32,000 bases of DNA from an uncultured archaeon. Its GTDB lineage: Archaea; Halobacteriota; Methanosarcinia; Methanosarcinales; Methanoperedenaceae. Under the pieces are notes generated by a model. The model was given only the letters and a program-made list of their open reading frames with translations, was not told the DNA's origin and did no database searches. The stretch is taken from assembly GCA_902386205.1 (NCBI GenBank), contig CABMIH010000006.1:1-32000 (forward strand), given 5' to 3'. Positions within the stretch are counted from its first letter, which is position 1; every line of letters begins with the position of its first letter. The position numbers and the translations under genes were made by a program. Below, piece after piece: positions 6,819 to 30,685 of this stretch.

Positions 6819-7320
6819 AAACCTCCCTTCACTGTTAGAGTTGGATTAAGACAGGATAAAAGTATTGGTGAAAGAAATCGAGGAAAAAAAGAACGACCGG
6901 ACCGGACTTGCTTAAGCCATTATTAAAGCCTTCATGGCGTCGTTGCTCAGATAAATTTCAAACATTCAATTCGGCAAGGGCATCATCAAGTCTGATTCTT
7001 TCGCCACGCCTCATCATTGTATCTCTGGACACTTTGGATTGCGACAATGAGAGACCTCCAACAGGCTATAGTTTGATAGAAGTAAGATGTTATGAAAAGT
7101 GCCGAGGTATGGTTGGAATGAGCCGAAAAGCGGCTACCCCATGCAAATCATTCATTTCTTATCATTTCCCGAAATAATTTTCTATTTCTTAACTTCTTTT
7201 ACCTTTTGTACTGTTTTCATAAAATTCACCATCCAAACATCTTGAAAGCAAAGCCCAACCAGACCTCTGGGTGCATCTTTCTTATGAAAGCCTGATTTGG
7301 GGTTTCGGCTCGTCTCAGAT

Positions 7321-7833: not shown

Positions 7834-7841
7834 GGTAAACA

Positions 7842-7853
7842 ATATATATAAAT
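7842..7853 (+). promoter_or_regulatory. TATA-like box upstream of hppA
   Basis: ATATATATAAAT lies 36-47 nt upstream of ATG 7889. A GGAGG lies 5 nt upstream of that ATG. Confidence 0.4.
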
Positions 7854-7888
7854 AGCACCAAGTGGGCGAAGATATTCTGGAGGATATT

Positions 7889-9955: not shown

Positions 9956-9999
9956 AAAAAAGATGCGGCTGGATCAGCCGCATTCACTCAATATTTTTT
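9956..9999. terminator. Bidirectional terminator-like element between convergent hppA and the peroxidase gene
   Basis: An A-run (9954-9960), then a perfect 9-bp stem 9963-9971/9975-9983 (ATGCGGCTG-gat-CAGCCGCAT), then T6 at 9994-9999. Confidence 0.55.
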
Positions 10000-10008
10000 A
10001 GCTTATTT

Positions 10009-11325: not shown

Positions 11326-11512
11326 AGTTAATTCCTCCCTTTATTGCGTTTTTATGTCGGGAATCCGGCAGCTATAGCTGCGAATCATTTTAAATCGCGC
11401 AAATGTCCCCTGATACGATTAATCACACGCCCGATCAAAAACCTTTTTCCCGAGAGCCCACTCTGTCCACTGGTCTCATCATTTATATGAGGATTTTTGT
11501 GATATATACTTT

Positions 11513-13327
11513 ATGGTCGACGATAAATTATATTATTTACGAAATAATCATAAGCTTTTTACTGATGTAGAGCAACTCTGTATTATGTTTTTGAAGGAGA
11601 AGATATTCGCAGGGGAAGGATTGATTAAAGCAGACCTTGTGTTAAAAAATTGCAGGATAGTCAATGTAAATACTAAAGAGATCACAAAAGGTGATATAGC
11701 CCTGAGGTCAGGGTTCATAGCAGGTATTGGCGATGTTGCCGAATTGAAAAATGCGAAAACAGACGTGATAGATCTGAAGAACGCGCATGTGTGCCCAGGA
11801 TTGATAGATGGCCATGTGCATTTTGAATCGAGTATGGTAACACTCACGCAATTTGCAGAACAATCCATCCGGCACGGGACAACTGGCATAGTCATTGATC
11901 CGCACGAAATAGCCAATGTCCTCGGTCCCAGGGGCATAAGGCTTGTGCTGCGTGAGGCGAAAGTGCTCCCAATAGATATTTTTGTAACAATCCCGTCATG
12001 TGTGCCCTCAAGCCCGCTTGAGACATCAGGCGCCAATATCGGATTAAAGGAGACGAGAAAGTTTCTTGATACAAAATTCGTTGTTGGGCTTGGTGAGATG
12101 ATGGATTATCCAGCCGTTCTTAGCGGTGCTCCTGAAAAGCTCAGGATGATCTCAGAAATTCTTGATAGAAAACTCGTTGTTGACGGTCACTGCCCGGGTT
12201 TACATGGAAAAGAGCTTTTCGGCTATCTGAGCGCCGGGATATCAAGCGACCACGAGTCCGTAACCTACGAAGAAGCGCTTGAAAAAGCACGCCTTGGCAT
12301 GAAGATCATGCTTCGGGAAGGATCGGCTGCAAAATGTCTCGATGAATTCATCCCCAAGCTTATTCGCGAAGGGATATCGCTTGAAAATTTTTTCTTTGCG
12401 ACGGACGATAAGAATTCCGAAGGCCTGATAAATGGACACATGGATGTGCTGGTAAGGGCTGCAATCAGGCTCGGGATAGACCCTATCCAGGCTGTCTCAA
12501 TGGCCACAATCAACACGGCGCGCCATTACAGGGTGGACCAGCTTGTTGGATCGATAAGCATAGGCCGAAGGGCGAATTTGATAATACTTGATCACCTGAA
12601 GGATTTCAAGATCAGGAACGTGGTAATACGGGGCATGTTAAATCCAAAGGTTGAAAGAATAGAATATCCCCGATACGTTTTCAGGACATTGAAATATAAA
12701 AGAATAGTACCTGATGACCTGAAGATCAAATCCCCTGATAAGACGGTATTTGCGCATGTCATAGAAATCGTACCAGGCCGGATAATTACAAACAGGACCA
12801 TCGAAGAGTTGAATACCCGGAATAAAGTCGTTCAGCCAGACGTGGAACGCGATATACTTGCCATTGCAGTTATAGAACGCCACGGAAAATCTGGAAACAT
12901 TGGCCTGGGTTTTGTCCGGGGCCTTGGCCTGAAAGAAGGCGCCATCGGCCAGAGCATTGCCCATGATTCGCATAACGTTATCCTTGCGGGCACGAACTTT
13001 GAGGATATGGCGCTCTGCGCGAACAAGCTCAGGGAACTGCAGGGCGGGATAGTGATCGCCAAGGGCAGGGTAATAGATTACCTCAGCCTGCCTTTTGCAG
13101 GAATTCTTAGCACTGATAGCTTATATAATGTGGATACAAAACTAAAAGAACTGCATAGCAAGGTCAGGAAGATGGGATGTAAGCTCGATGCGCCTTTTGT
13201 TCAGATGTCATTCCTTTCGCTTCCAGTCATACCCTCACTCAAAATAACTGATAAAGGGCTGGTGGACGTGGATGAGTTTAAAATAATAGAGTCTATAAAA
13301 AGCGTAGATCCTATAAAAATCCCCTGA
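11513..13327 (+). CDS. ade: Adenine deaminase
   Basis: Amidohydrolase metal motif CPGLIDGHVHFESS, plus length and overall pattern typical of Ade. The true start may be the ATG at 11585 (MFLKEKIFAGEGLIKADLVLKNCRIVNV...). Confidence 0.85.
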   Translation: MVDDKLYYLRNNHKLFTDVEQLCIMFLKEKIFAGEGLIKADLVLKNCRIVNVNTKEITKGDIALRSGFIAGIGDVAELKNAKTDVIDLKNAHVCPGLIDGHVHFESSMVTLTQFAEQSIRHGTTGIVIDPHEIANVLGPRGIRLVLREAKVLPIDIFVTIPSCVPSSPLETSGANIGLKETRKFLDTKFVVGLGEMMDYPAVLSGAPEKLRMISEILDRKLVVDGHCPGLHGKELFGYLSAGISSDHESVTYEEALEKARLGMKIMLREGSAAKCLDEFIPKLIREGISLENFFFATDDKNSEGLINGHMDVLVRAAIRLGIDPIQAVSMATINTARHYRVDQLVGSISIGRRANLIILDHLKDFKIRNVVIRGMLNPKVERIEYPRYVFRTLKYKRIVPDDLKIKSPDKTVFAHVIEIVPGRIITNRTIEELNTRNKVVQPDVERDILAIAVIERHGKSGNIGLGFVRGLGLKEGAIGQSIAHDSHNVILAGTNFEDMALCANKLRELQGGIVIAKGRVIDYLSLPFAGILSTDSLYNVDTKLKELHSKVRKMGCKLDAPFVQMSFLSLPVIPSLKITDKGLVDVDEFKIIESIKSVDPIKIP

Positions 13328-13554
13328 GATTTATGGATAAATTATAGCAGTGGAATAGCCATACTGCTAGTTACGTGGTTATAACTACTTAAGAAAGATA
13401 AATTAACTTATATTTTTCAAAAAATCCAAGAGTATAAATCACAAATTATTTAAGGCATCAAGATAACAATAATCTAAAAAACGGGATAAAAACGGGTACA
13501 AAATCCACTACGGATAGGAAAACGTATTAAAATGATTCAGAGAGGTAAAGAATA

Positions 13555-14511
13555 ATGTTACTTATTGGTGCGAGCGTATGCTCATTATTGAAAAAGAAAT
13601 ACGCAATGATCTTAATTGCAGCATTAATTTTATTAATCCCGGTCGTCTCTGCCCAGCAGGACGTATCCTGTTACCACTGTCACACAGAGGTAGTCACCCA
13701 GTTCAGGAATAACATCCATTACCAAGGGGGTTTCTCCTGCGCAGATTGCCATGGAGGCGTTTCGGAGTCTAACGCCACGGTGATATCAGCCAATGCGATG
13801 TCGGGAAATTTTATTGGAAAACCTTCAAGAGACCATATAACCGACATATGCTCAAAATGCCATAGTCAGGAAGCAAGCGACTACAAACAGAGCATCCACT
13901 GGTATGCTATTCAGAAAGGCCATCCTGAAGCAGCAACATGCACGGACTGTCATGGAGTCCATGAAATACGTGCAATAGCGGATAACAAATCTTCATCGAA
14001 CCACCAGAACAGTCCTGCAACATGCGCAAAGTGCCACTCGAACAAGGAATTAATGAGTGCATGGTATTATGGAATCAAAGCTGACAGGATCGACACATAT
14101 AAAGAATCCTTCCACTGGAAGGCACTGCGAAATGGATACAACGTAGTCGCAACCTGCTCGGATTGTCATAATAATCACATCACAAAATCCCATGAAGATC
14201 CTTCATCAAGCACATACCCCGACAACCTCCCCAAAACATGTGGTAAGGAAGGCTGCCATCCAGGGACAAGATTTGACGCCAAGGTAGCAGCAGGGCTTGT
14301 ACATGACAAGGAATCATTGCATACAGGAGAACTTGTCTTCAACCAGTCACGCCTGGAACCGCAGATGAAGGCGTATTTCCTTGGCCCATTTGACCTTGCT
14401 TACTGGATAGCCATATTTTTCAAGATATTGACAACAGGCGTTATAGGTCTCTTTGCAGCCATGGTAGTTCTGGATTTCGCATCAAGATTCAAGATCCACA
14501 GGAGATGGTGA
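13555..14511 (+). CDS. Membrane-anchored multihaem c-type cytochrome (7 haem motifs)
   Basis: Signal peptide, six CxxCH motifs (CYHCH, CADCH, CSKCH, CTDCH, CAKCH, CSDCH), one CX4CH (CGKEGCH), and a C-terminal TM helix (YWIAIFFKILTTGVIGLFAAMVVL). Confidence 0.9.
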   Translation: MLLIGASVCSLLKKKYAMILIAALILLIPVVSAQQDVSCYHCHTEVVTQFRNNIHYQGGFSCADCHGGVSESNATVISANAMSGNFIGKPSRDHITDICSKCHSQEASDYKQSIHWYAIQKGHPEAATCTDCHGVHEIRAIADNKSSSNHQNSPATCAKCHSNKELMSAWYYGIKADRIDTYKESFHWKALRNGYNVVATCSDCHNNHITKSHEDPSSSTYPDNLPKTCGKEGCHPGTRFDAKVAAGLVHDKESLHTGELVFNQSRLEPQMKAYFLGPFDLAYWIAIFFKILTTGVIGLFAAMVVLDFASRFKIHRRW

Positions 14512-14573
14512 TCATGCGAAAGCAATCATTAATTGAGGTTTCATATTCTAAGGAATTGAAAGGAGATAATACG

Positions 14574-15272
14574 ATGGGTGAAGTTTTTTTTAAACGTTTT
14601 ACATTCAATCAGCTTGTACAGCACTGGATAATGATTGGCACGTTCATGGCTTTGGTAGTAACCGGGATGCCTGTCAAATTCCCTGATGCATGGTGGTCTC
14701 CTGTGATCATCAACATGGTCGGGGGATTTGAAATGAGAACATTGATACACCATGCGGCCGGCATTTCTATGGTCGTCCTTGGTATATACCATGTCACCTT
14801 CCATGTTTTTGTGGATAAGGAGTCCCTGCTTGACAGGAAAGTTTGGCCGACATTGAAAGATGCAAAGGACTTCTGGCAAACGGTACTTTTTTACTTCGGG
14901 AAAGCAGAAAACCCGAAATACGGCAGGTATAGCTGGAAAGAAAAATTCGATTACTGGGGAGCCTTCTGGGGTATGGTGATGCTTTGCGTAACAGGTCTCA
15001 TAATGATGTTCCCGTTCATTGCAATGGAATACATACCTTATGCATATGTCCATCTTGCAACGATTATCCATACCGATGAAGCGCTGCTGGCGACCCTGTT
15101 CATTTTCATAGTCCACTGGTGGAATGTTCATTACAGTCCGGAAGTATTCCCAATGTCGAAAGCATGGCTGACTGGTAACCTTTCAGAGGAACAGATGAAA
15201 CATGAACATCCCCTTGAATATGAAGAGATTATGAGACAGATGCGGGAAAGAAGCGAAAAGGTGCCTGATTGA
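14574..15272 (+). CDS. b-type cytochrome, FdnI/Ni-Fe-hydrogenase cytochrome-b-like membrane subunit
   Basis: Four or five TM helices with conserved His residues (QHWIM, IHHAAG, YHVTFH, IIHTDE, VHWWNVH). I prefer ATG 14574 (AAGGAG RBS) over 14505. It lies immediately downstream of the multihaem cytochrome gene. Confidence 0.8.
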   Translation: MGEVFFKRFTFNQLVQHWIMIGTFMALVVTGMPVKFPDAWWSPVIINMVGGFEMRTLIHHAAGISMVVLGIYHVTFHVFVDKESLLDRKVWPTLKDAKDFWQTVLFYFGKAENPKYGRYSWKEKFDYWGAFWGMVMLCVTGLIMMFPFIAMEYIPYAYVHLATIIHTDEALLATLFIFIVHWWNVHYSPEVFPMSKAWLTGNLSEEQMKHEHPLEYEEIMRQMRERSEKVPD

Positions 15273-15385
15273 TTTCTTCCTCCTCTTTTTTATTTATAGA
15301 ATCCTGAAAAAAAGCATTTGTGGCAAATTCTTAAATATCTCACTGAGTATTTTAAAGTGGAATTGAAATCCAGGGAAGTATTTTC

Positions 15386-16516
15386 ATGAGCCATAATTAC
15401 TGGGAAGGAAAATCAATATCTCCACTATCACTGACGGGGAATCTGACCATAACGGAACTCGTTGACAACATCTTCGACGGTATGGGATATAACGCGAAAA
15501 GACTGGCTGAGGCCTGCCATCTTTTCAAGGCAATGATCGATGAGAACTCAACTTTATGCCTGACACTGGCAGGCGCGATGACACCAGTAGGTATGGGCGG
15601 GGGAATTATCAAGATGATAGAGAACGGTTTTATCGACTGGATAGTTACAACCGGGGCGAATACATATCACGATATGCATTTTGCATACGGGCTGCCTGTG
15701 CACCAGGGGGACTACACGGCCGATGATAACGAACTGGCGGATAATGATGTCGTCAGGATCTATGATGTTTATATTGACATGGAGCGAACGCTTATGGCCC
15801 AGGATAAGATCATCCAGGAGCTTACCAGGAAAGCGGTTGAAAGGAACCTGTTCCCTGAAAAATTCTCATCCGCGTATTATTATAAAACCCTTGGTGAAGG
15901 GATAGTGGAGACTGCAAAGCACCCGGAGCGTTCATTCATAGCCTCAGCCTCAAGGAACAATGTCCCGGTTTTCGTGCCATCTTTTGCCGACTCTTCAGTC
16001 GGGATGAACACAAGTTACATTCCCATCGTGGCAAGCGCGATATCGGGTTCAAAAGAACTGAACTCCGGGGATTTTGTTGACCCGAGCCCTACCATGGATG
16101 TTCTTGAAAGCGCTGCCATCGTTTTTAGCAGCATGAAGGAAGATATACCGCGCGGTGCTCTTGAAGTCGGCGGAGGAGTTCCTAAGAACTTCCTTCAGCA
16201 GACAGGGCCTACGATTTCCCAGATTCTTGGAATGGAGTGCCCAGGTGAGAATTATGTTGTCCAGGTAACTGTTGACCGCCCGGATACAGGAGGGCTTTCA
16301 GGCGCTACGATCAATGAAGGCAAATCATGGGGAAAGATCCCGAAAGCAGGAGAGGGAAATGTTGTACCGTACCTTGATGCAACAGTCGGGATCCCGATAA
16401 TTTTCGCTTATGCACTTGAGAACTGCAAGCCAAGGAAACTTAAGAGGTATGGCAGCAGATTACCCCGCCTGGCTGGGGAGCTTGTGGAAGCGGCTAAGGA
16501 AAAGGTTGAGAAGTGA
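15386..16516 (+). CDS. dys: Deoxyhypusine synthase
   Basis: DHS-family motifs LAGAMTPVGMGG, VTTGANTYHD and the catalytic-Lys context EGKSWGKI. Confidence 0.85.
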   Translation: MSHNYWEGKSISPLSLTGNLTITELVDNIFDGMGYNAKRLAEACHLFKAMIDENSTLCLTLAGAMTPVGMGGGIIKMIENGFIDWIVTTGANTYHDMHFAYGLPVHQGDYTADDNELADNDVVRIYDVYIDMERTLMAQDKIIQELTRKAVERNLFPEKFSSAYYYKTLGEGIVETAKHPERSFIASASRNNVPVFVPSFADSSVGMNTSYIPIVASAISGSKELNSGDFVDPSPTMDVLESAAIVFSSMKEDIPRGALEVGGGVPKNFLQQTGPTISQILGMECPGENYVVQVTVDRPDTGGLSGATINEGKSWGKIPKAGEGNVVPYLDATVGIPIIFAYALENCKPRKLKRYGSRLPRLAGELVEAAKEKVEK

Positions 16517-16536
16517 TACATGGAATATATAAAAAA

Positions 16537-16564
16537 AACAAAATTGTTATATAACATTTTTGTT
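16537..16564. terminator. AT-rich imperfect palindrome between convergent dys and the HEPN gene
   Basis: 14-nt arms with one mismatch, centred on 16550/16551 (core TGTTAT|ATAACA). It is flanked by A8 and T5 runs and overlaps the HEPN stop codon. Confidence 0.35.
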
Positions 16565-17003
16565 ATGCAATCTGAATTTTATAATTTTTCTTTAGAAATG
16601 GCAACAAAATCTTAAAAACCATTTGCATTCTCGTTTCATTCATTTTCGCATCATCAAGAGTGTATATTTGAGATGGAATCCTTATTCCCTCATCGCTCCA
16701 GTCAGGATACCTTGAAATTGCCCAGTTTTCTTCAAGAGGGACAACCCCTTCTTCGAGCGTCACCATTATTTGTGCGTCCATTTTATCTTCAAATTCTTTC
16801 AAGAAAAAGGAGAAGATTTCATGTTTATAGATGCCAATTTTGCCTTCTGCTGCAAGGCAAGCTTTTAGCAATTTTTCCACTGCCTGCTGGGCATGATAAA
16901 CCGCAAGGTTGAATTTTTCTTTTTCGATAAGCATGGAAACAACATCATAGTCATTATTTGCCTCTATAAGATACGCTTTTGCGACATCCAGTTTCTTTAT
17001 CAT
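16563..17003 (-). CDS. HEPN-domain protein (toxin-like partner of MNT)
   Basis: 146 aa. AVYHAQQAVEKLLKACL is typical of classical HEPN. There is a 4-nt overlap with the upstream MNT gene. The usual Rx4-6H appears as KIGIYKH. Confidence 0.75.
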   Translation of the reverse strand: MIKKLDVAKAYLIEANNDYDVVSMLIEKEKFNLAVYHAQQAVEKLLKACLAAEGKIGIYKHEIFSFFLKEFEDKMDAQIMVTLEEGVVPLEENWAISRYPDWSDEGIRIPSQIYTLDDAKMNETRMQMVFKILLPFLKKNYKIQIA

Positions 17004-17419
17004 GCCACCACTTCCCAGTAATCCTCATGGTTAACAACCCTGCTCGGGACTATCTGTTTAAAATGTTTTAATAATTTATCAAATGTGCCGTCATCATATA
17101 ATGGAATCCCATAGTTGAGAATATTGAGAATAAGCGGATTAAGTGTTTCCAGTGAGGTTTCCAGTTCTTCGATTGACGCAACCTTTGGAGATACCTGGCC
17201 TACTGTGCGGTAAAGCCTTTTCCTTAACTCTATTTCAAGGTCTCTGCGTTCCATCCAGTTTGCGAATTTCTTGTTTAAGATGATAAGAATGTCAATGTCA
17301 GAATATTTTTGAGCGTAGCCTTTCGCATAGGAACCATATAAAATTATACTGCAAAGTTTGTCTTGAAATTTGGCTTTTAATTCTGATACTACTTTTTCGG
17401 AAAGCTTGGAAGAAATCAT
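17000..17419 (-). CDS. Minimal nucleotidyltransferase (MNT) domain protein
   Basis: GSx10SDxD signature LYGSYAKGYAQKYSDIDILIIL. I prefer ATG at 17419; the track start at 17428 is TTG. Confidence 0.8.
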   Translation of the reverse strand: MISSKLSEKVVSELKAKFQDKLCSIILYGSYAKGYAQKYSDIDILIILNKKFANWMERRDLEIELRKRLYRTVGQVSPKVASIEELETSLETLNPLILNILNYGIPLYDDGTFDKLLKHFKQIVPSRVVNHEDYWEVVA

Positions 17420-17431
17420 TTTAATCAACTC

Positions 17432-18295
17432 TTATAGAACACCCAATATCCAACCTTCCAATCTTGCTAATTTTAGTTTATCATCTTCAAGGTTTGGATT
17501 AAACCACTGGATTAATGTATTTCCTTTGTCTTGTTCGTATAGCCAAGTAGAGCATGCTTCAGCGTCGTTTTCATTAGTTTTTTCTTTTTCATTCACCAGT
17601 CCCGGATACATTTCAACCAGCACATGACCACTGGAAGGAAAATCCCAACCATCAAAAGGCCAGCAGAATAATTCAATGCCCACATCTTTCAAATCAGAAC
17701 GTAACTTAGCCAGATGTTGAATGCCATATAGGGATTGCAGGCCAACGGTTCCTTTTCCACCGATTTTATAAATTGGTTTAGTTTTAGGGCATCTATCTTC
17801 TGTAATCCTTTTTTCTTTTAGACGCGTGGTTTTCTCAAAGAATTTTGGATTAGTCTCTTGATATTTGAAAAGAGGTCCCCAAAAAGGACCTCCAGTTATT
17901 ATATTCAATCGTTTACAGATACAATCATTCGTATCTTTTGCCCATTCTCTGGGTTTATCATTAACAGGCGGTAATTCTTTCGTCCCATTGCATAATAAGT
18001 CTAAAAGTTGTTCCCATGTTTTCCATCTGTTTCCAGTTACGATTTCATAAAAACCTTCGGGGAAACTATAAGAATGGTCGAATCCAAAAATAACTCTCTG
18101 ATCATTTTGCATCGCTTTAACCAATAATGATTGGATTTCATATCTCAGGGATTTCCGTGTATAACATTTTGTTGTTTGCGGTTTTTCATTTTCATTACAA
18201 ATAATAGATAAAGCTATTGATTTCTTTTGATCATTGGCAGACTCTGAACCGCTATAATCAGCAAAAGCATATACATCGAATTTTCTCGACCTCAA
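17432..18295 (-). CDS. Hypothetical protein (possibly RNase-H-like/DUF429-like fold; unverified)
   Basis: 287-aa ORF. The only available start is TTG 18295, preceded by AAGGTGG and overlapping the stop of the upstream FAD-dehydrogenase gene. N-terminal DVYAFADYSGS and internal FGFDHSYSFP motifs. GC looks lower than in the upstream genes. Confidence 0.6.
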   Translation of the reverse strand: MRSRKFDVYAFADYSGSESANDQKKSIALSIICNENEKPQTTKCYTRKSLRYEIQSLLVKAMQNDQRVIFGFDHSYSFPEGFYEIVTGNRWKTWEQLLDLLCNGTKELPPVNDKPREWAKDTNDCICKRLNIITGGPFWGPLFKYQETNPKFFEKTTRLKEKRITEDRCPKTKPIYKIGGKGTVGLQSLYGIQHLAKLRSDLKDVGIELFCWPFDGWDFPSSGHVLVEMYPGLVNEKEKTNENDAEACSTWLYEQDKGNTLIQWFNPNLEDDKLKLARLEGWILGVL

Positions 18296-22705: not shown

Positions 22706-23967
22706 GTTTCAGGGGATTCATAGAACAACTAAGATCAGAGGGGAAACTCAAGGAAATTGGAACACCAATCTCGCCTGTGTATGAAGTTTCCGCGATCGCG
22801 GGGAGAGAACCCACGCTTTTTACCAATGTAAATGGTTCAATGGTTGCAATGAACGTTATTGGTTCAAGGGAACTGCTTGCAGAAGCACTTGGCGTACAGC
22901 CTGAGATGATCATATCCCATTTATCTTCACACCCGCCTGAAGGAAAAATTAAACTTGTCGCGGATTCACCCACGAAAGAAGTCGTTGAAAAACCCGACCT
23001 CTCGAAACTTCCAATACTTACGCACTTTGAAGGGGACGGTGCCCCGTATATTACCTCAGGTGTAGTGGTGTCGGAATACGAAGGGGTCATGAACGCCTCG
23101 ATTCACAGGCTCCGCGTGATAGGGAAGGATAAGCTTGCAGCGCGGCTTGTGGAATTCAGGCATACTTATAATCTTCATAAAAAAGCTGCCGAACATGGGA
23201 AGGCACTGCCCATCGCTATCGTTATTGGCATTGACCCCGTAACACTGTTTGCCATTTCAACACGGGTGCCGGAAGGAAAAGAGTTCGAATATGCATCGTC
23301 CCTCCGCGGTGAGCCGATAGAGGTTTTCGAATGCGGGAATGGTATCAAAGTCCCGCATGCTGAGATCGTGCTTGAGGGATACATCCATCCCACGGAACTT
23401 GTGGATGAGGGGCCGTTCGTGGATATCAGCGGCACCTATGATATTGTGAGGAAACAACCTGTCATATATATAACAAAAATCATGCACAGGAGAGATCCGA
23501 TATACCATGCTCTCATTCCTGCGGGGAATGAGCATAATATCCTGATGGGAGTACCTTACGAGCCGCTGATCTTCAACGAAGTGAAAAAGATGGCTGATGT
23601 CAGGAACGTGGTCCTTACTCCGGGAGGCTGCTGGTATTTCCATGCAGCTGTCCAGATACATAAAAATAACGATGAAGAGGCAAAGAAAGCTATCGAGGCT
23701 GCGTTTTTGGCGCACAAGAGCCTGAAACACGTAGTGATAGTGGATGACGACATAAATATTTTCGACCCGAATGATATCGAATTCGCTATTGCGACCCGTG
23801 TTAAGGGCGACGAGGACATATACATTTATCCAAATGTCAGGGGCAGCACGCTTGACCCACGCTCTGAGAACGGGATAGGGACGAAAGTGGGCATTGATGC
23901 TACGATGGATTTGAGCAAGAGGTGGAAGTTCGAGAGGGCAAGACGGCCTGAGATAAAAGGCAGATGA
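22702..23967 (+). CDS. ubiD: UbiD-family (prFMN-dependent) decarboxylase
   Basis: 421 aa with an ATGA overlap with ubiX. UbiD-like blocks are present (GAPYITSGVVV, NASIHRLRV, FVDISGTYD, VVIVDDDINIFD). Confidence 0.85.
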   Translation: MSFRGFIEQLRSEGKLKEIGTPISPVYEVSAIAGREPTLFTNVNGSMVAMNVIGSRELLAEALGVQPEMIISHLSSHPPEGKIKLVADSPTKEVVEKPDLSKLPILTHFEGDGAPYITSGVVVSEYEGVMNASIHRLRVIGKDKLAARLVEFRHTYNLHKKAAEHGKALPIAIVIGIDPVTLFAISTRVPEGKEFEYASSLRGEPIEVFECGNGIKVPHAEIVLEGYIHPTELVDEGPFVDISGTYDIVRKQPVIYITKIMHRRDPIYHALIPAGNEHNILMGVPYEPLIFNEVKKMADVRNVVLTPGGCWYFHAAVQIHKNNDEEAKKAIEAAFLAHKSLKHVVIVDDDINIFDPNDIEFAIATRVKGDEDIYIYPNVRGSTLDPRSENGIGTKVGIDATMDLSKRWKFERARRPEIKGR

Positions 23968-24127
23968 AGACGATTAATCATGAAGCATCTGAGGAATCAT
24001 GTAGCAAAAATGTTCTTTGAAACCTGTATGATGGCGAATCCAAATGTGGTGATATGTTTTTAATCAAATAAATATCTATAAATAATTGATAAAAGAGTAT
24101 ATATGAAACGGTAGTGATATTTATTTG

Positions 24128-24604
24128 ATGATGGAAAAAATCAATCGTAAGAAAAAAAATAATAAATATTTACTTATATTACCTTGTTCGAAACAGAAAA
24201 AAGAACTGTACAGTACATCTGCCCTGGAATTATACGACGGCCCCTTTTATCGTGTAGTCCGAAAAAATCAACCAAAAAATTTAGACATTTTAATTCTTTC
24301 TGCTAAATATGGATTAATCAGTTCTGACAATCTTATTTCTTATTATGACCAAATAATGACCCCTAAAAGAGCTGAAGAACTTGCCAGTAAGATTATGATG
24401 AAACTGGAAAGGATATTTACAAATGAAGATTATAATGAAGTATTCATAAATCTTGGAAAAAACTACTTGCCTGCATTAGATGGATCAAAAAAAATACTTG
24501 ATGAACATAATGTAAATTGGGCAAATGGACAAATTGGCGAGAGACTGCATCAACTTAAAACATGGCTCAATACAATTAGAGCAACAGAGAGATTGGTCTC
24601 ATGA
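24128..24604 (+). CDS. DUF6884-like small protein (function unknown)
   Basis: YLLILPCSKQKK...ALELYDGPFYRVV...ILILSAKYGLISSDNLISYYDQIMT matches the pattern I recall for DUF6884 proteins (ACSxxK ... LY ... ILSAKYGL ... YD). ATG 24128 or 24131; the track start 24125 is TTG. Its stop overlaps the helicase ATG (ATGA). Confidence 0.6.
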   Translation: MMEKINRKKKNNKYLLILPCSKQKKELYSTSALELYDGPFYRVVRKNQPKNLDILILSAKYGLISSDNLISYYDQIMTPKRAEELASKIMMKLERIFTNEDYNEVFINLGKNYLPALDGSKKILDEHNVNWANGQIGERLHQLKTWLNTIRATERLVS

Positions 24605-27015
24605 TTAGCTGGAATGATTTTGAGCATGCTGTAATAAATCAACTTAATCCACCTAGAAATATTAATAATCAGTATAATCCAGAACAAAATAATGCCATTC
24701 ATGCTCCTCAGAACCAATCTTTATTCTTAGCAGCAGGGCCAGGTAGCGGAAAAACAACTGTTATAACACTAAGGATCTTAAAACTCATTTTTGTAGATAA
24801 TGTTGATACATCAAGTATTTTAGTTACAACATTCACACGAAAAGCTGCCGCAGAATTAAGCTCAAGAATACTTGGATGGGGAGACCAACTTAAAAGGATT
24901 TTCTTGTCTCATCCATCTTACATTTCTATTAAAAATCAACTTGAGATTATAAATTTTAATAACATTACAATCGGAACTTTGGATAGTATAGTAGAAGAAA
25001 AATTAGGATATTATCGCCCAGCAGGTGCGCCTAATCCGGTGGTCATCGAGGACTTTGTATCCAATGCTTTGATGATTAAATTTGGTCTTTTTTTGCATAA
25101 TAGGCATAATAATAGCAATCTTAAAGATTATATACTGAATTTAAAATGCTCGTCACTTCCCCCCAATCCTTCAGAAATGAGTTCTACTTTAAGAGAAATT
25201 AAAGATAGAATATATCATGACCAAATAAATATTAACCAATATAGGTCTCAATCCCATCATCAGGGTATTCCAGTGGCATGTGATGCGATAGACGATTATA
25301 ATCAAGAATTACAGGATAGATTACTTTTCGATTTTACTAGATTAGAGCATGAATTTTTGTTTCAACTTCGAGCAGGAACATTAAAAACATTTCTGGAAGA
25401 TATTAATTTTATCCTTATCGATGAATACCAAGATACAAATTATCTACAAGAACAAATATATTTTGAGTTATCAAGGGCAGCATTACAAAATATGGGTAGT
25501 ATAACAGTTGTGGGTGATGATGACCAATCACTTTATCGTTTTCGCGGTGCCACTGTAGATTTGTTCCAAGAGTTCCTAAATAGAACGAACAGTCAATTAA
25601 ATCTTGTTCCTCGACTAATATATCTCTCTCAAAACTATAGATCTACCCCGATGATAGTTAGTTTTTGTAATAGATATATTAGTTTGGATAGTCAATTTCA
25701 AAATGCTCGTGTTTTAGGTAAACCTCCAATAATACCAGCACGACAAATGAATCCTCAATCTCATAACTATCCTGTCTTGGGAATGTTTAGAGATGATGTT
25801 GATACGCTTGCTCATGACTTAGGATTATTTATTCATAGAGTAATTCACGGCAGAGGTGTTCAAATTCAATATCAGGGTAATATATTTACGATACATACTG
25901 ATCAACAAAATGGCTCTCCTGCTGATATCGCGTTATTATTTAGTTCACCAAAAGAATTTAGTTCAAATGGAAATTCAAGACTTCCTTTGCTGTTACGCAA
26001 TGAATTAAGGAACCTATCACCACAAATTCAGATTTTTAATCCGCGCGGGCAGGATTTAGAACTAATACAAGATGTTCAAAGATTATGTGGTTTGATTCTG
26101 GAATGTATAGACCCTAATAGTAGAATACAAAATGATATACAGAGATTGCCGCAAGATGCCAGAGATAGACTTAACGAGTGGAGAAGAGAGGCGGTTAATT
26201 TTATAAACAGTAATCCTTTACATCAAACTCCAAGAAATCTAGGAGATTTTGTAGATGCTTGGAGAAATAGAAGACCTCTTGGAAGGCAAGTTCGTAGTAG
26301 AAAGTGGGAAGTTCCACTACTAGATTTAGTTTATAAACTAGTTACATGGATTCCCAATATGCAAAACGATATAGAGGGATTAGTTTATCTTGAAGCGATA
26401 TCAAGAACTATCAATCAAGCGGGTTTATTTGGTAATTATGAATCTAAAATAATTATTGATACAAATAATACAAATTTAGAATTCGACTCTGTTAATGAAG
26501 CTCTATGGAATATTTTTATACCTATTGCCACAGGTGCAATCAAAATAAACGAAGACCTTCTTGAAACTCTGCCAAATGATAGAATAAATGTAATGTCTGT
26601 TCATCAAGCAAAAGGGCTTGAGTTTCCATTGGTTGTCGTCGATGTAGGAAGCGACTTCAAAACAGATCACTGGAAACAAAGATTTAGACGTTTTCCGCAA
26701 CTGAATAATAACGGGAACGTAGAGGATGGAAAAAGTGTAAATTTGGAAAATGAACTAAGACCTCATTGCATTGACCCTCAATTAAGGCAATTACAAAGAA
26801 CAAGTTTGGATAGAGCATTTGATGATTTAACAAGACAATATTTTGTATCCTTTAGCAGGGCTCAAGATGTATTATTATTAGTTGGTTTGAATTCAGTTAG
26901 AAATGGTTATAATAGCCGTTCTGGAAGAAAAGAAATTCCAAATATCGCAACAGGTTGGAATAGAAATAGAAACTGGGACTGGGGTCGAGGATTGCCTAAT
27001 TTATATCATATATAG
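24601..27015 (+). CDS. UvrD/Rep/PcrA-like superfamily-1 DNA helicase
   Basis: SF1 motifs in order: I AAGPGSGKTTVIT, Ia VTTFTRKAAAELSSRI, II ILIDEYQDTN, III VVGDDDQSLYRFRGA, IV LSQNYRSTPMIV, V/VI VMSVHQAKGLEFPLVVV and YVSFSRAQDVLLLV. Confidence 0.9.
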   Translation: MISWNDFEHAVINQLNPPRNINNQYNPEQNNAIHAPQNQSLFLAAGPGSGKTTVITLRILKLIFVDNVDTSSILVTTFTRKAAAELSSRILGWGDQLKRIFLSHPSYISIKNQLEIINFNNITIGTLDSIVEEKLGYYRPAGAPNPVVIEDFVSNALMIKFGLFLHNRHNNSNLKDYILNLKCSSLPPNPSEMSSTLREIKDRIYHDQININQYRSQSHHQGIPVACDAIDDYNQELQDRLLFDFTRLEHEFLFQLRAGTLKTFLEDINFILIDEYQDTNYLQEQIYFELSRAALQNMGSITVVGDDDQSLYRFRGATVDLFQEFLNRTNSQLNLVPRLIYLSQNYRSTPMIVSFCNRYISLDSQFQNARVLGKPPIIPARQMNPQSHNYPVLGMFRDDVDTLAHDLGLFIHRVIHGRGVQIQYQGNIFTIHTDQQNGSPADIALLFSSPKEFSSNGNSRLPLLLRNELRNLSPQIQIFNPRGQDLELIQDVQRLCGLILECIDPNSRIQNDIQRLPQDARDRLNEWRREAVNFINSNPLHQTPRNLGDFVDAWRNRRPLGRQVRSRKWEVPLLDLVYKLVTWIPNMQNDIEGLVYLEAISRTINQAGLFGNYESKIIIDTNNTNLEFDSVNEALWNIFIPIATGAIKINEDLLETLPNDRINVMSVHQAKGLEFPLVVVDVGSDFKTDHWKQRFRRFPQLNNNGNVEDGKSVNLENELRPHCIDPQLRQLQRTSLDRAFDDLTRQYFVSFSRAQDVLLLVGLNSVRNGYNSRSGRKEIPNIATGWNRNRNWDWGRGLPNLYHI

Positions 27016-27026
27016 AAGGAATAAAC

Positions 27027-28220
27027 ATGTCGTTATCTGTTAGATCTAAACCTTATATAATCCCAGAATATAGTCTTACTGGAGATTTATTATCGTATCT
27101 TACCTGTGGATTACAATATAGATATCAAAATAAAGGTTCTCTTCCCCCATCTAAACCAGTTCAATTATGGTTTGGAGAATTTATTCATGGTGTTATGGAA
27201 GAAGCCTATCGTGAATGGCAACAAAACCCACAAAAAAGAAGGTTTCCATGGAATTGGAATTCAGAAATACGCGATATTGAACTCAGAATCCATCGAAGAT
27301 TGAGTGCGAGGGGTTTAAATCCTCCACCAGGGCAATTTTGCAGATATGATTCACCTTCAAATACTCAAAGATTATGTCCCGATGCTAAGCACCCTCATAA
27401 ACTTCTAGCTAGTAAAAGAACTGAAGCGGCAATTAACACATGGGGAAAACACTTATTTCCTTTAATTAATGAAGCAGAAGTCAAACTTAAGGGTATAAGA
27501 GATATGCCAAGCTATAATCCAAGAGTTAGTAGATCGAATTATTACGGTATTACTGGGATTATCGATGTAATAAGTTCAGTACATCTTGCTAATGCGCCAT
27601 CGGGAAATTTAATTCTTCATGAAATACACCAAAATTCACAGATACAGCAAGTAATAGATAATTTGACATCACCAGAGTATGAAATTATTATCGATTATAA
27701 GGGGATGAGAAGACCATCTAACTTAGCTGATAAATGGAATTATCATGAATGGCAAATTCTAACCTATGCGGGGCTTAGAAAACAACAGCCACAATCTAAG
27801 CCTATAGTTGCAGGAATACTCTTTTATCTCAATGAATTGATCCCTTCTAAAACAGACATAAAACTATTGAAACCTGAAGTTGTAAACAATGAAACAGATA
27901 TTATGCCTTCTGGGCTCGATTTACGAAATATCATAAATTGGATACCTAGACCGAGAACAGATGCACCTGTACTTACTCTTCCATTTAGAGAATCACGATC
28001 AATCCGAGTTATACCAATTCTTCCCAGTAATATACAAAATGGTTTTCAAAATTTTGATAATGTCGTAGATGAGATCGAAAGCTCAATACTTTCAGAAACC
28101 TCTGGTCAACTAATTAATTCATGCTGGAGAGCTATGGCTCATAGAGAAACATGCACTGCATGCGATTTTAAAACATTTTGTCGAAGCTCTGCTCAACGTG
28201 GTGCACCTACAGTACCATAA
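27027..28220 (+). CDS. PD-(D/E)xK nuclease with a Cas4/AddB-type Fe-S cluster (iron-staple) signature
   Basis: N-terminal Cys (YLTCGLQYRY), GEFIHGVMEE, GIIDVIS ... IIIDYKG (D...DxK), QILTYA (QxxxY), and a C-terminal CTACDFKTFC (C-x2-C-x5-C). Confidence 0.8.
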   Translation: MSLSVRSKPYIIPEYSLTGDLLSYLTCGLQYRYQNKGSLPPSKPVQLWFGEFIHGVMEEAYREWQQNPQKRRFPWNWNSEIRDIELRIHRRLSARGLNPPPGQFCRYDSPSNTQRLCPDAKHPHKLLASKRTEAAINTWGKHLFPLINEAEVKLKGIRDMPSYNPRVSRSNYYGITGIIDVISSVHLANAPSGNLILHEIHQNSQIQQVIDNLTSPEYEIIIDYKGMRRPSNLADKWNYHEWQILTYAGLRKQQPQSKPIVAGILFYLNELIPSKTDIKLLKPEVVNNETDIMPSGLDLRNIINWIPRPRTDAPVLTLPFRESRSIRVIPILPSNIQNGFQNFDNVVDEIESSILSETSGQLINSCWRAMAHRETCTACDFKTFCRSSAQRGAPTVP

Positions 28221-28222
28221 AT

Positions 28223-29530
28223 ATGGAATATGACATGAAATTGAAATATTTTCTGCCGGATTGGGAAGACCGATTAGACCCTGATTTTAATTTTGCTACT
28301 GATAAATATTCCAAAAAACATGATGCAGACCCCTATAACTATGATTTTTATGCCCATCAATTATTTGATAAACCACCTTATGATGGGATATTATTTAGTT
28401 TGAGTGTATTTCAATCAAAAATAACATTAAAAAATGGGGATAATGAAACATACACAATTAGAAACCATACAAATATCAGGGATTATTTAAAAATCCCAAA
28501 AGATTCTTCTTTGAAAGTTATGGGCGATTGCGGCGCCTTTGGTTACGTTAAAGAGAAAGCGCCACCACTGCCGTTTTATAGTGTTGAGAATGTTTCAAAT
28601 ATTTACGATAAATTAGGATTTGACTATGGAGTTTCTGTGGATCATCTGGTTGTTGACTATGTAATGGTTAGAGATGAAATAACAGGAAAGAAGTTAAAAA
28701 ATATTCTTTCCAGAGATGAGAAGGATGAAAGGATAGAAATTACACTAAAAAATGCTAAAAAGTTTCTAAAATTACATAATAAAAAAAAATATAATTTTAT
28801 TCCTATTGGCGTAGCACAGGGTTATGATACAGATACTTATAGGGAATCTGTTAAATCATTAATTGAAATGGGGTATAAATATATCGCTCTTGGTGGGCTT
28901 GTTCAGTACAAATCAGATTTTATAATAGGGATTTTAACGGAAATACAACCATTTATAAAAGGTATAAATGTTCACTTATTTGGTGTTTTAAGACCAGGTC
29001 ATCTAAATGATTTTGAAAGTTTTGGAGTTACAAGCTTTGATAGTGCATCATTTTTACGCAAAGCATGGCTCAGATCAGGGCAGAACTATTTAGCCCCAAA
29101 TGGGAAATGGTACGCTGCGATAAGAGTGCCGCAGGCCACAAATCCGCGGCTTTTAAAACATGCCAATTTAAATGGCTTTTCAATAGACGATCTGATAAAG
29201 ATGGAGCAGGATGCATTGCGAGCATTAATTAAGTATGATAAAGGAAAAATTAATGTAGACGATACACTGGATATTATTTTAAAATATGATAATCTTCTTC
29301 TCCGCGATTCAAATGATGGAGAGAACCTAAAAGAAAAATATGAGCGTACGCTGTTAGATAGGCCCTGGAAATCTTGCAGTTGTAATGTTTGTAAAAAAAT
29401 AGGAATACATGTGATTATATTCAGGGGAACAAATCGAAATAAAAGAAGAGGATTTCATAATACATGGATTTTTAGGGAAGTCGCAGAAATTATTAATTTC
29501 AATAAGAGGGAGGAAAATGCTGACTTATAA
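28223..29530 (+). CDS. tRNA-guanine-transglycosylase-family paralogue, DpdA-like (putative DNA guanine transglycosylase)
   Basis: TIM-barrel TGT motifs: Asp in MGDCGAFGY (cf. TDSGGFQ), ALGGLV, HLFGV, nucleophile Asp in FDSASF, and a zinc site CSCNVC...FHN (CxCxxC-x22-H). N-terminal FLPDWEDRLDPDFNF resembles DpdA N-termini as I recall them. I see no PUA or other tRNA-binding extension. I prefer ATG 28223 (2 nt after the nuclease stop) over 28178. Confidence 0.7.
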   Translation: MEYDMKLKYFLPDWEDRLDPDFNFATDKYSKKHDADPYNYDFYAHQLFDKPPYDGILFSLSVFQSKITLKNGDNETYTIRNHTNIRDYLKIPKDSSLKVMGDCGAFGYVKEKAPPLPFYSVENVSNIYDKLGFDYGVSVDHLVVDYVMVRDEITGKKLKNILSRDEKDERIEITLKNAKKFLKLHNKKKYNFIPIGVAQGYDTDTYRESVKSLIEMGYKYIALGGLVQYKSDFIIGILTEIQPFIKGINVHLFGVLRPGHLNDFESFGVTSFDSASFLRKAWLRSGQNYLAPNGKWYAAIRVPQATNPRLLKHANLNGFSIDDLIKMEQDALRALIKYDKGKINVDDTLDIILKYDNLLLRDSNDGENLKEKYERTLLDRPWKSCSCNVCKKIGIHVIIFRGTNRNKRRGFHNTWIFREVAEIINFNKREENADL

Positions 29531-29819
29531 AACCATATTAACCAAACTCGAAGAAAATAAAGCCGCTATAAAAAAATTCGGCGTCAAAAGAATCGGCCTA
29601 TTCGGTTCATATCTCAGGAATGAACAAAAACCCACAAGTGATATCGATATACTGGTTGAATTCGAAAAAGGCAAAATAACATTCGATAACTACATGGAGC
29701 TCAAATTCTTTTTAGAAGACCTGTTCAAAATTAAAGTTGACCTCGTAATGGAAGATGCGATTAAACCGGATTTAAAGCCGTATATCCTTGGGAGTGTAAA
29801 ATATGCAGCGAGCGCATGA
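29517..29819 (+). CDS. mntA: MntA-type minimal nucleotidyltransferase (antitoxin)
   Basis: [21 protein letters not shown] signature. GAGGGAGGA RBS. 14-nt overlap with the TGT-like gene. Confidence 0.85.
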
Positions 29820-30141
29820 GGCTTATCTTAAAGATATTCTTGAGGCCATCCGTAAAATTGAAAAATATACTGAAAAATTGACCTATGAGGAATTCCTGAA
29901 AGATGAATTAAGACAGGATGGGGTAGTGAAAAATCTGGAAATTATTGGAGAAGCGGTCAAGAGAATCCCGTCTGAGATCAAGAATAAAAAACCGGAAATT
30001 GAGTGGAAAAAGATTGCCGGGTTAAGAGATATTCTTACACATGAATATTTTGGAATAAATTTCGAAATCGTATGGGATGTAACAAAGAACAAGCTCCCGG
30101 ATTTGAAAAAAGAAACTCAGGAACTTCTTTCTGGGCTGTAA
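29803..30141 (+). CDS. hepT: HepT-type (DUF86) HEPN ribonuclease toxin
   Basis: 112 aa with the Rx4H motif [11 protein letters not shown] near the C-terminus. 17-nt overlap with mntA. Confidence 0.85.
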
Positions 30142-30169
30142 AAACCCGGATTCTCAAAAGAAAAAAAGA

Positions 30170-30685
30170 TCAGCTCACGAACTTGGGGGAAAAATACTTC
30201 TTGATAACAGTATCGCATTTCCCGCATGTGATCATGAGCCAATCGCCTACATCCTGTTTATCGTAGTGGTCGAATATGGATGCGCCGCAACCGGGACAGA
30301 CATAGTATTCCTTGAAATAGTAGTTGTAGAATTCAGGACACCGTTCAAGCCAGTTGATCGCCTGAAGTAGCCTTTCAAGATATCTCTGTTTCCCGCCTTC
30401 CGCGCCTTTTTGCATCTCTTCATGCACATGTTCTTCCATGTGCTTGAGGTGACGCTTGCTATGCTTTCGTATCCGCTGGTAGTCGCTTAAGAACTGTTTC
30501 CCATTTTCAAGATATTTGAGGTATCCTGTTTTTGTATCAGAACCCTCATGTCTGAGCGTCCTCAGGAAATATTCACTCATCAGGTCTTCCATCAGGTCGG
30601 CGCATTCGGTGCAGATATTGAATCCTTTGTAATGTTTTGAGTCCTGGTCACCCTTGCATATCTTGCAGGTTTCCATTCTTCTCAC
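30170..30685 (-). CDS. Cys-rich zinc-ribbon protein, hypothetical
   Basis: 171 aa. CKICKG...CTEC at the N-terminus and CPGCG...CGKC at the C-terminus. GTG 30685 overlaps the upstream stop (GTGA); the alternative start is ATG 30676. Confidence 0.6.
   Translation of the reverse strand: MRRMETCKICKGDQDSKHYKGFNICTECADLMEDLMSEYFLRTLRHEGSDTKTGYLKYLENGKQFLSDYQRIRKHSKRHLKHMEEHVHEEMQKGAEGGKQRYLERLLQAINWLERCPEFYNYYFKEYYVCPGCGASIFDHYDKQDVGDWLMITCGKCDTVIKKYFSPKFVS

Follow-up and report, generated by a model that had tools for sequence, protein, structure and literature searches.

The window analysed here, a stretch of 32,000 nucleotides (32 kb) from contig CABMIH010000006.1 of an uncultured Methanoperedenaceae archaeon, contains six plus-strand open reading frames (ORFs), named g1 to g6 throughout (Table 1), the first four of which form a module that is conserved in both archaeal and bacterial genomes. 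In this module a DNA-guanine transglycosylase of the bacterial DpdA family (g4) is combined with a half-size relative of DpdC (g1) and with a UvrD-type helicase and an iron-sulphur (Fe-S) nuclease that together resemble AddAB (g2-g3). Judged from the sequences, the chances are about even that the locus is a compact 7-deazaguanine modification-restriction system of the Dpd type that lacks DpdB, with an unrelated MntA/HepT pair (g5-g6) alongside.

The four core proteins

The protein encoded by g4 scored 434.6 bits with the NCBIfam DpdA equivalog NF041059 (cutoff 200) and 425.9 bits with the PADLOC DpdA model, against only 26.7 bits with the ArcTGT model TIGR00432 (cutoff 350), 29.8 bits with the Tgt model TIGR00430 (cutoff 306.75) and 32.4 bits with TIGR00449 (cutoff 47.6). 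Since the DpdA equivalog cutoff is passed and the Tgt and ArcTGT scores lie far below their cutoffs, identity with a tRNA-guanine transglycosylase (TGT) can be ruled out and g4 is assigned as a true DpdA, in agreement with the initial annotation made from the bare sequence. It aligned over its full length with the crystallised DpdA of S. Montevideo (PDB 7UI4; E=1.2e-86, 39.5% identity), in which Asp95 is the general acid/base, Asp256 the nucleophile, Asp130 the residue for base recognition and Phe99 the gate (DpdA structure paper). These residues correspond to D102, D273, D140 and F106 of g4, which together with the zinc ligands C385, C387, C390 and H412 were invariant in 74 relatives. Homologues of g4 number in the thousands, many of them DpdA::DUF6884 fusions, and the archaeal relatives already carry the name DpdA at NCBI. 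DpdA was told apart from tRNA TGT by the contrast in hidden Markov model (HMM) scores, with the neighbour-joining tree comprising DpdAs only and being midpoint-rooted. In that tree the clade containing the window DpdA was almost wholly linked to the helicase-nuclease pair, with the S. Montevideo enzyme falling in a separate clade without the pair.

The g1 protein matched Pfam DUF6884 at 55.2 bits (cutoff 30), with weaker matches to DUF5591 (the C1 domain of ArcS) and YaaA/DUF328, and among the PADLOC models it matched the candidate PDC-M57A (3.6e-12) and, weakly, DpdC (9e-7). Canonical DpdC has itself been assigned to DUF6884 (GATOR-GC preprint), and in hhalign comparisons the g1 family profile matched two targets at 92-94% probability, a DpdC-type protein of 320 aa and the domain at the N-terminus of the PCC 7113 DpdA fusion. 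The opinion first formed of this locus, that only the DpdA-like gene was recognisable, has therefore to be amended, DUF6884 being the DpdC family, with the predicted writer consisting of DpdA plus a mini-DpdC and only DpdB absent. The g1 protein has 158 aa compared with ~300 aa for DpdC, the C-terminal half being absent. Four motifs, PCSKxK, LYDGPFY, ILSAKYGLI and GQIGERLHQLK, are near-invariant in the family. The PC-x3-K motif is the signature of the catalytic C1 domain of ArcS (PMC10516641) and is carried by g1, whose invariant Cys20 and Lys24 are likely to be the catalytic residues. The AlphaFold2 (AF2) model of g1 (pLDDT 87) gave AF0587 (2q07) and E. coli YaaA (5caj) as best Foldseek matches, with a sequence search against PDB chains returning noise only. 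DpdC yields ADG by hydrating the nitrile group of preQ0 within DNA, with ArcS converting tRNA-bound preQ0 to archaeosine (PMC10516641). Because these two enzymes act on DNA- or tRNA-bound preQ0, g1 is by analogy most likely a tailoring enzyme for the preQ0-modified nucleotide in DNA (dPreQ0).

The g2 protein matched Pfam UvrD-helicase at 158.5 bits and also UvrD_C, and helicase motifs I to VI could be read intact in the translation (Walker A GPGSGK51T, DEYQD, GDDDQSLYRFRGA, NYRS, HQAKGLEF and SFSRAQ). Its best NCBIfam match was AddA at 141.9 bits (cutoff 707.65), every equivalog cutoff lying far above the g2 scores, and with PADLOC only generic matches of the GajB type were obtained, reaching 110 bits. 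When the middle and C-terminal portions of g2 were scanned with PADLOC for a hidden partner model of PDC-M57, again only marginal GajB matches appeared, and the literature searched contained no mention of PDC-M57. The g3 protein matched Pfam PDDEXK_1 at 46.2 bits, and in 24 homologues the Fe-S cysteines C27, C376, C379 and C385 and the nuclease residues D180, D223, K225, Q243 and Y247 were invariant. With the AF2 model (pLDDT 78) the top Foldseek matches were the nuclease domains of AddB and AddA (4ceh_B, 7.4e-5), followed by Cas4. The score with the Cas4 model TIGR00372 was 18.9 bits (cutoff 65) and the ORFs scanned in the window included no cas genes. On these matches g2-g3 is classed as an AddAB-like helicase-nuclease, the two proteins of which presumably form a physical complex. 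An additional invariant set, C105-x11-C117-x4-H122-x-H124 (27339-27398), lies in a region of g3 largely devoid of secondary structure in the AF2 model and may constitute a further metal-binding site, of a kind that has not been described in AddB or Cas4.

No ParB/DndB/DGQHR domain of the kind that would mark DpdB was present in the six genes or in 20 other window ORFs scanned, nor did the Pfam lists for the related loci L001-L006 contain DpdB. Likewise, none of the six proteins had a PADLOC match to DpdD-K.

Distribution and gene arrangements of the module

A scan of one genome per GTDB species yielded 469 DpdA relatives, the best 80 loci of which were analysed by tblastn and by HMM and jackhmmer searches, with the linkage counts over the 80 loci being lower bounds as some contigs were incomplete. 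The UvrD and PD-(D/E)xK pair lay within ~9 kb of DpdA in 36 of the 80, and DUF6884 was fused to DpdA or encoded near it in 63. Methanococcales and Aquificota-type groups are among the taxa represented. The four-gene set was found in at least 11 archaeal species loci, belonging to Methanoperedens, Ca. Pyrohabitans, Methanobacterium, Methanotrichaceae, Methanothermococcus, Methanoregula, Theionarchaea and Thermoplasmata, and in some 25 bacterial loci from Dehalococcoidia, Bacteroidota, Bacillota, Poribacteria, Ignavibacteriales, Desulfurobacteriaceae, Chloroflexota, Planctomycetota and Deltaproteobacteria. Cultured carriers are Methanococcus aeolicus (CP104873), Methanothermococcus sp. Ax23 and Methanocaldococcus sp. 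FS406-22. The same DUF6884-UvrD-PDDEXK-DpdA set as in the window occurs at the same site, after ubiX/ubiD, in a further Methanoperedens metagenome-assembled genome (MAG; L001), and also in Methanothermococcus. In L001 an additional gene for a DUF1016/YhcG-type nuclease stands between ubiD and the system (5312-5905).

Elsewhere the genes are arranged in other ways, with DUF6884 just upstream of DpdA, with the pair downstream or on the opposite strand, or with DUF6884 fused to the C- or the N-terminus of DpdA. The order UvrD-PDDEXK-DpdA::DUF6884 was found within defence islands that contain GmrSD, HicAB, a restriction endonuclease, HEPN/MNT, SLFN/AlbA and type III restriction-modification genes, with BREX genes also among the defence-related neighbours. 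The initial annotation had looked to synteny of the core genes in other genomes and to proximity to known defence genes, and both are now documented, the former in many archaeal and bacterial genomes. In a Desulfurobacteriaceae MAG the helicase and nuclease are fused into a single ORF of 923 aa (L041, 6233-9004). The DpdA of L008, 71% identical to g4, is accompanied by proteins with 61% identity to g2 and 65% identity to g3 (401 aa), whereas in L002, where DpdA is 66% identical to g4, the helicase has 25% identity to g2 and the nuclease only 310 aa. The combination of two divergent helicase-nuclease lineages and several gene orders with similar DpdAs therefore indicates repeated selection for the coupling.

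In three loci (L015, L022 and L032) another cassette of ~3.6 kb sits between DUF6884 and DpdA in the place usually taken by the pair, that of L015 (1994-6009) encoding a protein of 355 aa with no assigned function, a BrxC/D- or DndF-like ATPase of 423 aa and a second unassigned protein of 547 aa. Such replacements suggest effector swapping at DpdA/DUF6884 loci, and are the pattern expected of a constant writer (DpdA with a DpdC-family domain) served by exchangeable effectors. More distant DpdAs (~37-42% identity) are long DpdC-like::DpdA fusions, some of whose loci also contain a second TGT paralogue, a YhhQ/Vut_1 transporter or, as published for PCC 7113, QueD together with DndB/DpdB, a PLD nuclease and a DEAD helicase. 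Links to preQ0 are seen among these fusions, with YhhQ/Vut_1 adjoining a DpdC::DpdA fusion in Paenibacillus and QueD adjoining one in PCC 7113. The Paenibacillus terricola locus (L072, 7530-16003) encodes YhhQ/Vut_1 followed by a 693-aa DpdC-like::DpdA protein, a 310-aa TGT paralogue, proteins without assignment and a 1053-aa protein with a weak DpdH match; no DpdB was detected among the seven ORFs scanned there (5113-16003). The presence of two DpdA paralogues was common among the loci.

In the Methanococcales the locus occupies one conserved site beside PAC2 and FTR. That of Methanococcus aeolicus (L096, CP104873) has acquired, between the helicase and nuclease genes, a cassette with an MmeI-like/Eco57I-type methyltransferase and a T5orf172 protein (1078-5826), and is thereby a landing pad for further defence genes.

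The pair also exists apart from the modification genes. Homologues of g3 with 56-58% identity, each accompanied by a UvrD partner, occur without DpdA or DUF6884 beside them in Methanobacterium paludis (L092, CP002772) and on two metagenomic contigs (L093 and L094). Their neighbours include MNT/HepT, BREX/GmrSD or Mre11-Rad50-like genes, with one stand-alone pair in a defence island beside PglZ/BrxL and GmrSD and that of L094 adjoining Mre11/Rad50-like and MNT genes on a contig with a lone DUF6884 gene. A pair of the g2-g3 type is thus an autonomous two-gene module and may represent a previously undescribed stand-alone system for defence or repair, for which PADLOC has no model. The lone DUF6884 gene of L094 (152 aa, 157-615) directly follows a DUF2357/PDDEXK_7 gene and has no TGT nearby. 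Some DUF6884 proteins may accordingly take part in defence independently of DpdA, and PDC-M57A, the candidate model of PADLOC, may correspond to such a case.

Locus structure, origin and surroundings

The junctions from g1 to g6 measure, in order, -4, +11, +2, -14 and -17 nt, with that between g3 and g4 becoming +14 if g4 begins at the methionine of MKLKYF, the start found in homologues, four codons downstream. The overlaps, and an adjacency that is kept in other genomes, argue for transcription of g1 to g6 as a single unit. Upstream of g1 a repeat search revealed a perfect 14-nt inverted repeat (24063-24076 and 24116-24129), overlapping the g1 start codon and bracketing a TATA-like sequence, TATATATG, located ~25 nt 5′ of the start. 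Nucleotide homology between the window and L001 begins at 24062, right at this element, which is kept in L001. The element may be an archaeal promoter/operator or alternatively form a 5′ stem-loop. A scan with sigma-70 promoter and terminator models gave hits at chance level, the model being a bacterial one and inapplicable to an archaeon.

Table 1. Coordinates of the g1-g6 genes and of the candidate control element upstream
Feature	Position	Strand	Description
candidate promoter/operator	24063-24129	+	AT-rich, 14-nt inverted repeat and TATA-like element
g1	24128-24604 (alternative start 24125)	+	158 aa, DUF6884, half-size DpdC/ArcS-C1-like
g2	24601-27015	+	804 aa, superfamily 1A (SF1A) UvrD/AddA-like helicase
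g3	27027-28220	+	397 aa, RecB-family PD-(D/E)xK nuclease, AddB/Cas4-type 4-Cys Fe-S site
g4	28223-29530 (alternative start 28178)	+	DpdA, bacterial-type (bDpdA) DNA-guanine transglycosylase
g5	29517-29819	+	MntA-like minimal nucleotidyltransferase, antitoxin, accessory
g6	29803-30141	+	HepT-like HEPN RNase, toxin, accessory

Windowed G+C content falls to 0.31-0.36 between 24000 and 30000. For the individual genes g1-g4 it is 0.31-0.36, with 0.21-0.26 at third codon positions (GC3), and for g5-g6 it is 0.36-0.37. Upstream, ubiX/ubiD have a G+C content of 0.47-0.48 and a GC3 of 0.45-0.51, the two genes downstream have values of 0.45-0.46 and 0.45-0.56, and the rest of the window has a G+C content of 0.436, making the compositional break larger at third codon positions. 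Much of what the initial annotation had read from the sequence, namely the six plus-strand ORFs with their spacings, the sharp drop in G+C relative to the flanks and an island without genes for preQ0 synthesis, was reproduced by these calculations and by the ORF scans of the window, in which no queC/D/E/folE genes were found. Its gene labels were also upheld, with the domain calls being DUF6884, UvrD, PDDEXK_1 (Cas4-like), TGT/DpdA, NTP_transf_2 (MntA-like) and HepT.

Its treatment of the six genes as one unit fared less well, the conserved core being g1-g4 and MntA/HepT being missing from nearly all related loci and decayed in the closest, where L001 keeps a 48-aa remnant of MntA only and has lost HepT. 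The g5 protein matched Pfam NTP_transf_2 at 62.6 bits, NCBIfam MntA at 45.7 bits (cutoff 60) and PADLOC PDC-S09 at 1.7e-37, with g6 matching Pfam HepT-like at 116.1 bits and NCBIfam HepT at 56.1 bits (cutoff 60) and having RDILTH as its Rx4H motif. A g6 homologue near the four-gene system was found only in L041, where a MntA/HepT-like pair adjoins the DUF6884 gene, and in L066. The pair is probably an accessory toxin-antitoxin unit co-transcribed with the module rather than a component of the system.

Low G+C is not peculiar to the module in the window. In five of eight other hosts measured (L001, L008, L010, L017 and L023) the module has 32-39% G+C compared with 44-50% in the flanks; the contrast is weaker (0.42 vs 0.46) in a Dehalococcoidia MAG (L011), and the module is compositionally indistinct in two low-GC genomes, of Methanococcales (L002/L013) and Ignavibacteriales (L031). 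These compositions point to horizontal acquisition of g1-g4. Window positions 24062-29630 align to L001 5912-11411 at 78.6% nucleotide identity, the homology stopping inside g5. The corresponding value for ubiXD is 75.9%, so similar that the acquisition is therefore older than the split of the two Methanoperedens lineages. A search of 23800-30400 for direct repeats or att sites returned only short repeats at chance level, and no integrase, structural, replication or viral genes were found around 24000-30200. Relatives were present in 5 of 2.9 million viral contigs (including L088 and L091 of IMG/VR, a few carrying the set) and in 1 of 50,697 phage records (32.9% identity), with the plasmid matches being classic dpdA+dpdB clusters at 35-42% identity.

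Other features of the window include multihaem cytochromes, which together with the similarity to L001 suggest a Methanoperedens-like archaeon, and, on the minus strand at 16563-17428, a second pair of HEPN (146 aa) and minimal nucleotidyltransferase (142 aa) genes, independent of g5/g6 and located in a patch of 0.35-0.37 G+C (16501-18000). At 1930-4490, also on the minus strand, a CHAT-domain protein (479 aa) is encoded beside a 356-aa ORF without a Pfam match, and this could be a caspase-like protease module involved in defence or signalling. A minus-strand ORF of 231 aa (7321-8016), with a sub-threshold match of 30.3 bits to the rve integrase core (cutoff 32.6), overlaps the start of an H+-pyrophosphatase gene (7862-9955) and is probably the remnant of an insertion sequence.

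Proposed function and comparison with known systems

Euryarchaea make preQ0 for archaeosine. In the proposed scheme g4 would exchange guanine in host DNA for preQ0 drawn from this precursor pool, and g1 would then convert the nitrile of the inserted preQ0, with the amide dADG as the most likely product and another derivative as a possibility. The AddAB-like machine formed by g2-g3 would unwind and degrade DNA without the mark, with 7-deazaguanine on host DNA serving as a self signal that would block or attenuate its action. If the pair is end-dependent like AddAB and RecBCD, one may speculate that the mark acts as a brake that spares self and is not the only protection of the host. The protein identities, the intact catalytic motifs, the DpdA-DUF6884 fusions, the linkage across phyla, the acquisition by horizontal transfer and the lack of DpdB and of DpdD-K are established; that preQ0 is used, what g1 produces and how restriction would work overall are inferred.

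Several observations weigh against this scheme. Characterised bacterial DpdA requires the DpdB ATPase (DpdA literature), there is no DpdB here, and activity of DpdA in its absence is assumed by analogy with phage DpdAs. The g1 protein has half the length of DpdC, its hhalign match misses the PCx3K motif, and its chemistry may differ from that of DpdC. No que genes lie within the 32 kb covered, with a supply of preQ0 from the host being assumed. The pair occurs without DpdA or DUF6884 in L092-L094, and tolerance of the pair by a host therefore needs no mark intrinsically. Furthermore, the Methanococcales locus lies among housekeeping genes.

The requirement of bacterial DpdA for an ATPase is also the starting point for an unlikely alternative, that the locus is purely a modification machine in which UvrD replaces DpdB by opening the duplex for DpdA and the nuclease prepares DNA for loading by nicking or processing it, with no restriction arm; the modification could then shield DNA from other nucleases, serve as an epigenetic mark or add thermostability. 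That DpdA may need a helicase-like activity to make local single-stranded DNA was suggested by the authors of its structure. The present locus has no DpdB, and in the N-terminal fusion class the helicase is always beside DpdA, with a gap of 4 nt (L038, L039) or 18 nt (L066) or with an overlap (L043). However, the helicase-nuclease pair also exists without DpdA, DUF6884 with DpdA is also found with quite different cassettes replacing the helicase, phage DpdAs function without DpdB or a dedicated helicase, and an intact processive-type nuclease of the RecB/AddB Fe-S kind is hard to justify in a pure writer. The stand-alone pairs could also be taken to mean that two independent neighbours are present, an orphan writer made up of DpdA and mini-DpdC (for example for anti-restriction, its reader being elsewhere or absent) and an autonomous end-dependent helicase-nuclease for defence or recombination, which travel together only through defence islands. 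Pairs alone in defence islands, DpdA with DUF6884 lacking the pair, and the defence genes inserted between the parts in M. aeolicus would all fit, but in most loci the genes are co-oriented and either overlap or directly adjoin each other, the coupling recurs with two divergent pair lineages and at least four gene orders in more than 30 species loci of both domains, and the DpdA subclade correlates with presence of the pair, which exceeds what co-residence in islands would lead one to expect. This explanation is likewise given a low probability, similar to that of the pure modification machine.

A role in DNA repair, in which the YaaA-like protein would sense a damaged or abnormal base, DpdA would replace damaged guanine with an intact base and the helicase-nuclease would resect, is considered improbable. 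A link to oxidative stress has been reported for E. coli YaaA, and in pull-downs YfjM, a DUF6884 protein of B. subtilis, was recovered on abasic and RNA-base lesions (literature), the Methanococcales locus has a conserved position with housekeeping flanks, and the pair of L094 stands beside Mre11/Rad50-like genes. The patchy taxonomy, foreign composition and defence-island setting are, however, atypical of core repair, and g4 is 39.5% identical to a proven preQ0-inserting enzyme with the same pocket residues and has relatives with YhhQ or QueD as neighbours. More doubtful still is a modification-dependent defence, in which DpdA-like and YaaA-like proteins would recognise viral 7-deazaguanine and make lesions or adducts for the helicase-nuclease to degrade. 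Dag glycosylases do target phage DNA modified with 7-deazaguanine, and archaeal viruses carry such modifications (literature). Yet g4 is kin at equivalog level to a self-modifying bacterial DpdA, and the DpdC-like fusion points to synthesis rather than recognition. Moreover, insertion of 7-deazaguanine by TGT enzymes is effectively irreversible, so that excision by an enzyme of this fold is chemically disfavoured. Least credible of all is that g1-g6 are a relic left by a virus or plasmid with the ability to hypermodify its own genome, an alternative entertained in the initial annotation that turns out to be poorly supported. The foreign composition, the few IMG/VR contigs with the set and the rve integrase fragment elsewhere in the window might be cited for it, but viral and phage relatives are very rare, the plasmid matches are classic clusters, and around 24000-30200 there are neither genes for structural proteins, replication or an integrase nor direct repeats on the two sides. 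In addition, the occupation of the same chromosomal site in the second Methanoperedens lineage, at an identity close to that of ubiXD, indicates stable chromosomal inheritance.

Returning to the modification-restriction system, a wider claim can be put forward tentatively and with confidence well short of even. The loci would then represent an unrecognised class of 7-deazaguanine immunity in Archaea and Bacteria, in which a DpdA independent of DpdB and tailoring by a mini-DpdC would provide marks of self that, in the manner of Chi, slow a minimal AddAB-like helicase-nuclease otherwise destroying any DNA onto which it can load, with the archaeosine precursor pool supporting the first chromosomal 7-deazaguanine in archaea. 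DNA modification with 7-deazaguanine has so far been documented in bacteria with large dpdA-K islands and in viruses. The literature searched contained no account of DpdA with a UvrD/RecB-type pair or of DpdA systems in archaeal chromosomes, with a mention in the founding Dpd papers being possible. The only large survey of dpd clusters found required dpdAB and was confined to bacteria (GATOR-GC preprint), and a recent BREX-related study reports another TGT system lacking DpdB and DpdC. The DpdA enzyme is thus already annotated in archaea, and the four-gene system is not described in the literature searched.

If the scheme is true, a four-gene version carried by methanogens, ANME-type archaea, Thermoplasmata and many bacterial phyla would bring chromosomal 7-deazaguanine modification of DNA to Archaea, which already produce preQ0 on the way to archaeosine, and DpdA would be shown to work without a ParB-like ATPase or with a helicase in its stead, a question raised by the authors of the DpdA structure. 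It would also provide a very small set of writer and effector whose self/non-self logic is open to dissection in vitro, and the autonomous UvrD and Fe-S nuclease module of defence islands would become a candidate stand-alone defence system. The existence of cultured carriers makes the prediction directly testable.

Of the known systems touched by individual genes of the locus, the MntA/HepT type VII toxin-antitoxin system resembles g5/g6 in its two domains, in the motifs GS...DxD and Rx4H and in the overlap of its genes, with g5 and g6 falling slightly under the NCBIfam equivalog cutoffs and not being conserved with the g1-g4 core. Gabija also has a UvrD-type helicase, and g2 has its defence context and matches to GajB models, but there is no match to GajA (an OLD/TOPRIM ATPase-nuclease), the g2 matches reflect the generic helicase core and the partner is instead a RecB-type Fe-S nuclease. 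The resemblance of g2-g3 to AddAB, AdnAB and RecBCD is closer, with a UvrD-like motor of the SF1A class and a RecB-family nuclease carrying the AddB-type four-cysteine Fe-S site, and with the fusion of L041 combining both in a single polypeptide. However, at 804 and 397 aa the two proteins are much smaller than the AddAB subunits (~1,150-1,250 aa each), there is only one nuclease, g3 has no helicase-like domain and the pair no second, inactive helicase-like scaffold, and the scores are far below the equivalog cutoffs. Pairs of this type are found in defence islands or beside a DNA-modification module, unlike AddAB and RecBCD with their recombination operons.

Phages reportedly possess pairs of DpdA with ArcS/DpdC-type proteins, such as DpdA2 and ArcS of Vibrio phage nt-1, in work attributed to Hutinet (2019) and Cui (2023). 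As at the present locus, these consist of a transglycosylase and a stand-alone ArcS-C1-like domain with the PCx3K motif, lack DpdB and can be supplied with preQ0 by the host, whereas g4 is a member of the bDpdA family, outside DpdA1-4, and its locus is chromosomal, linked to a helicase-nuclease and devoid of preQ0 synthesis genes. The closest parallel is the bacterial Dpd system dpdA-K, reportedly described by Thiaville (2016), Yuan (2018) and Gedara (2023). The two have in common the DpdA family with an identical catalytic Asp triad and zinc site, a DpdC-family (DUF6884) partner, a horizontally mobile island with a layout of writer and effector and, presumably, the use of preQ0. They differ in that the Dpd effectors are SNF2/DEAD helicases and a PLD nuclease as opposed to UvrD and an Fe-S RecB-type nuclease, and in that the four-gene system spans Archaea and Bacteria with a DpdA clade apart from that of S. 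Montevideo.

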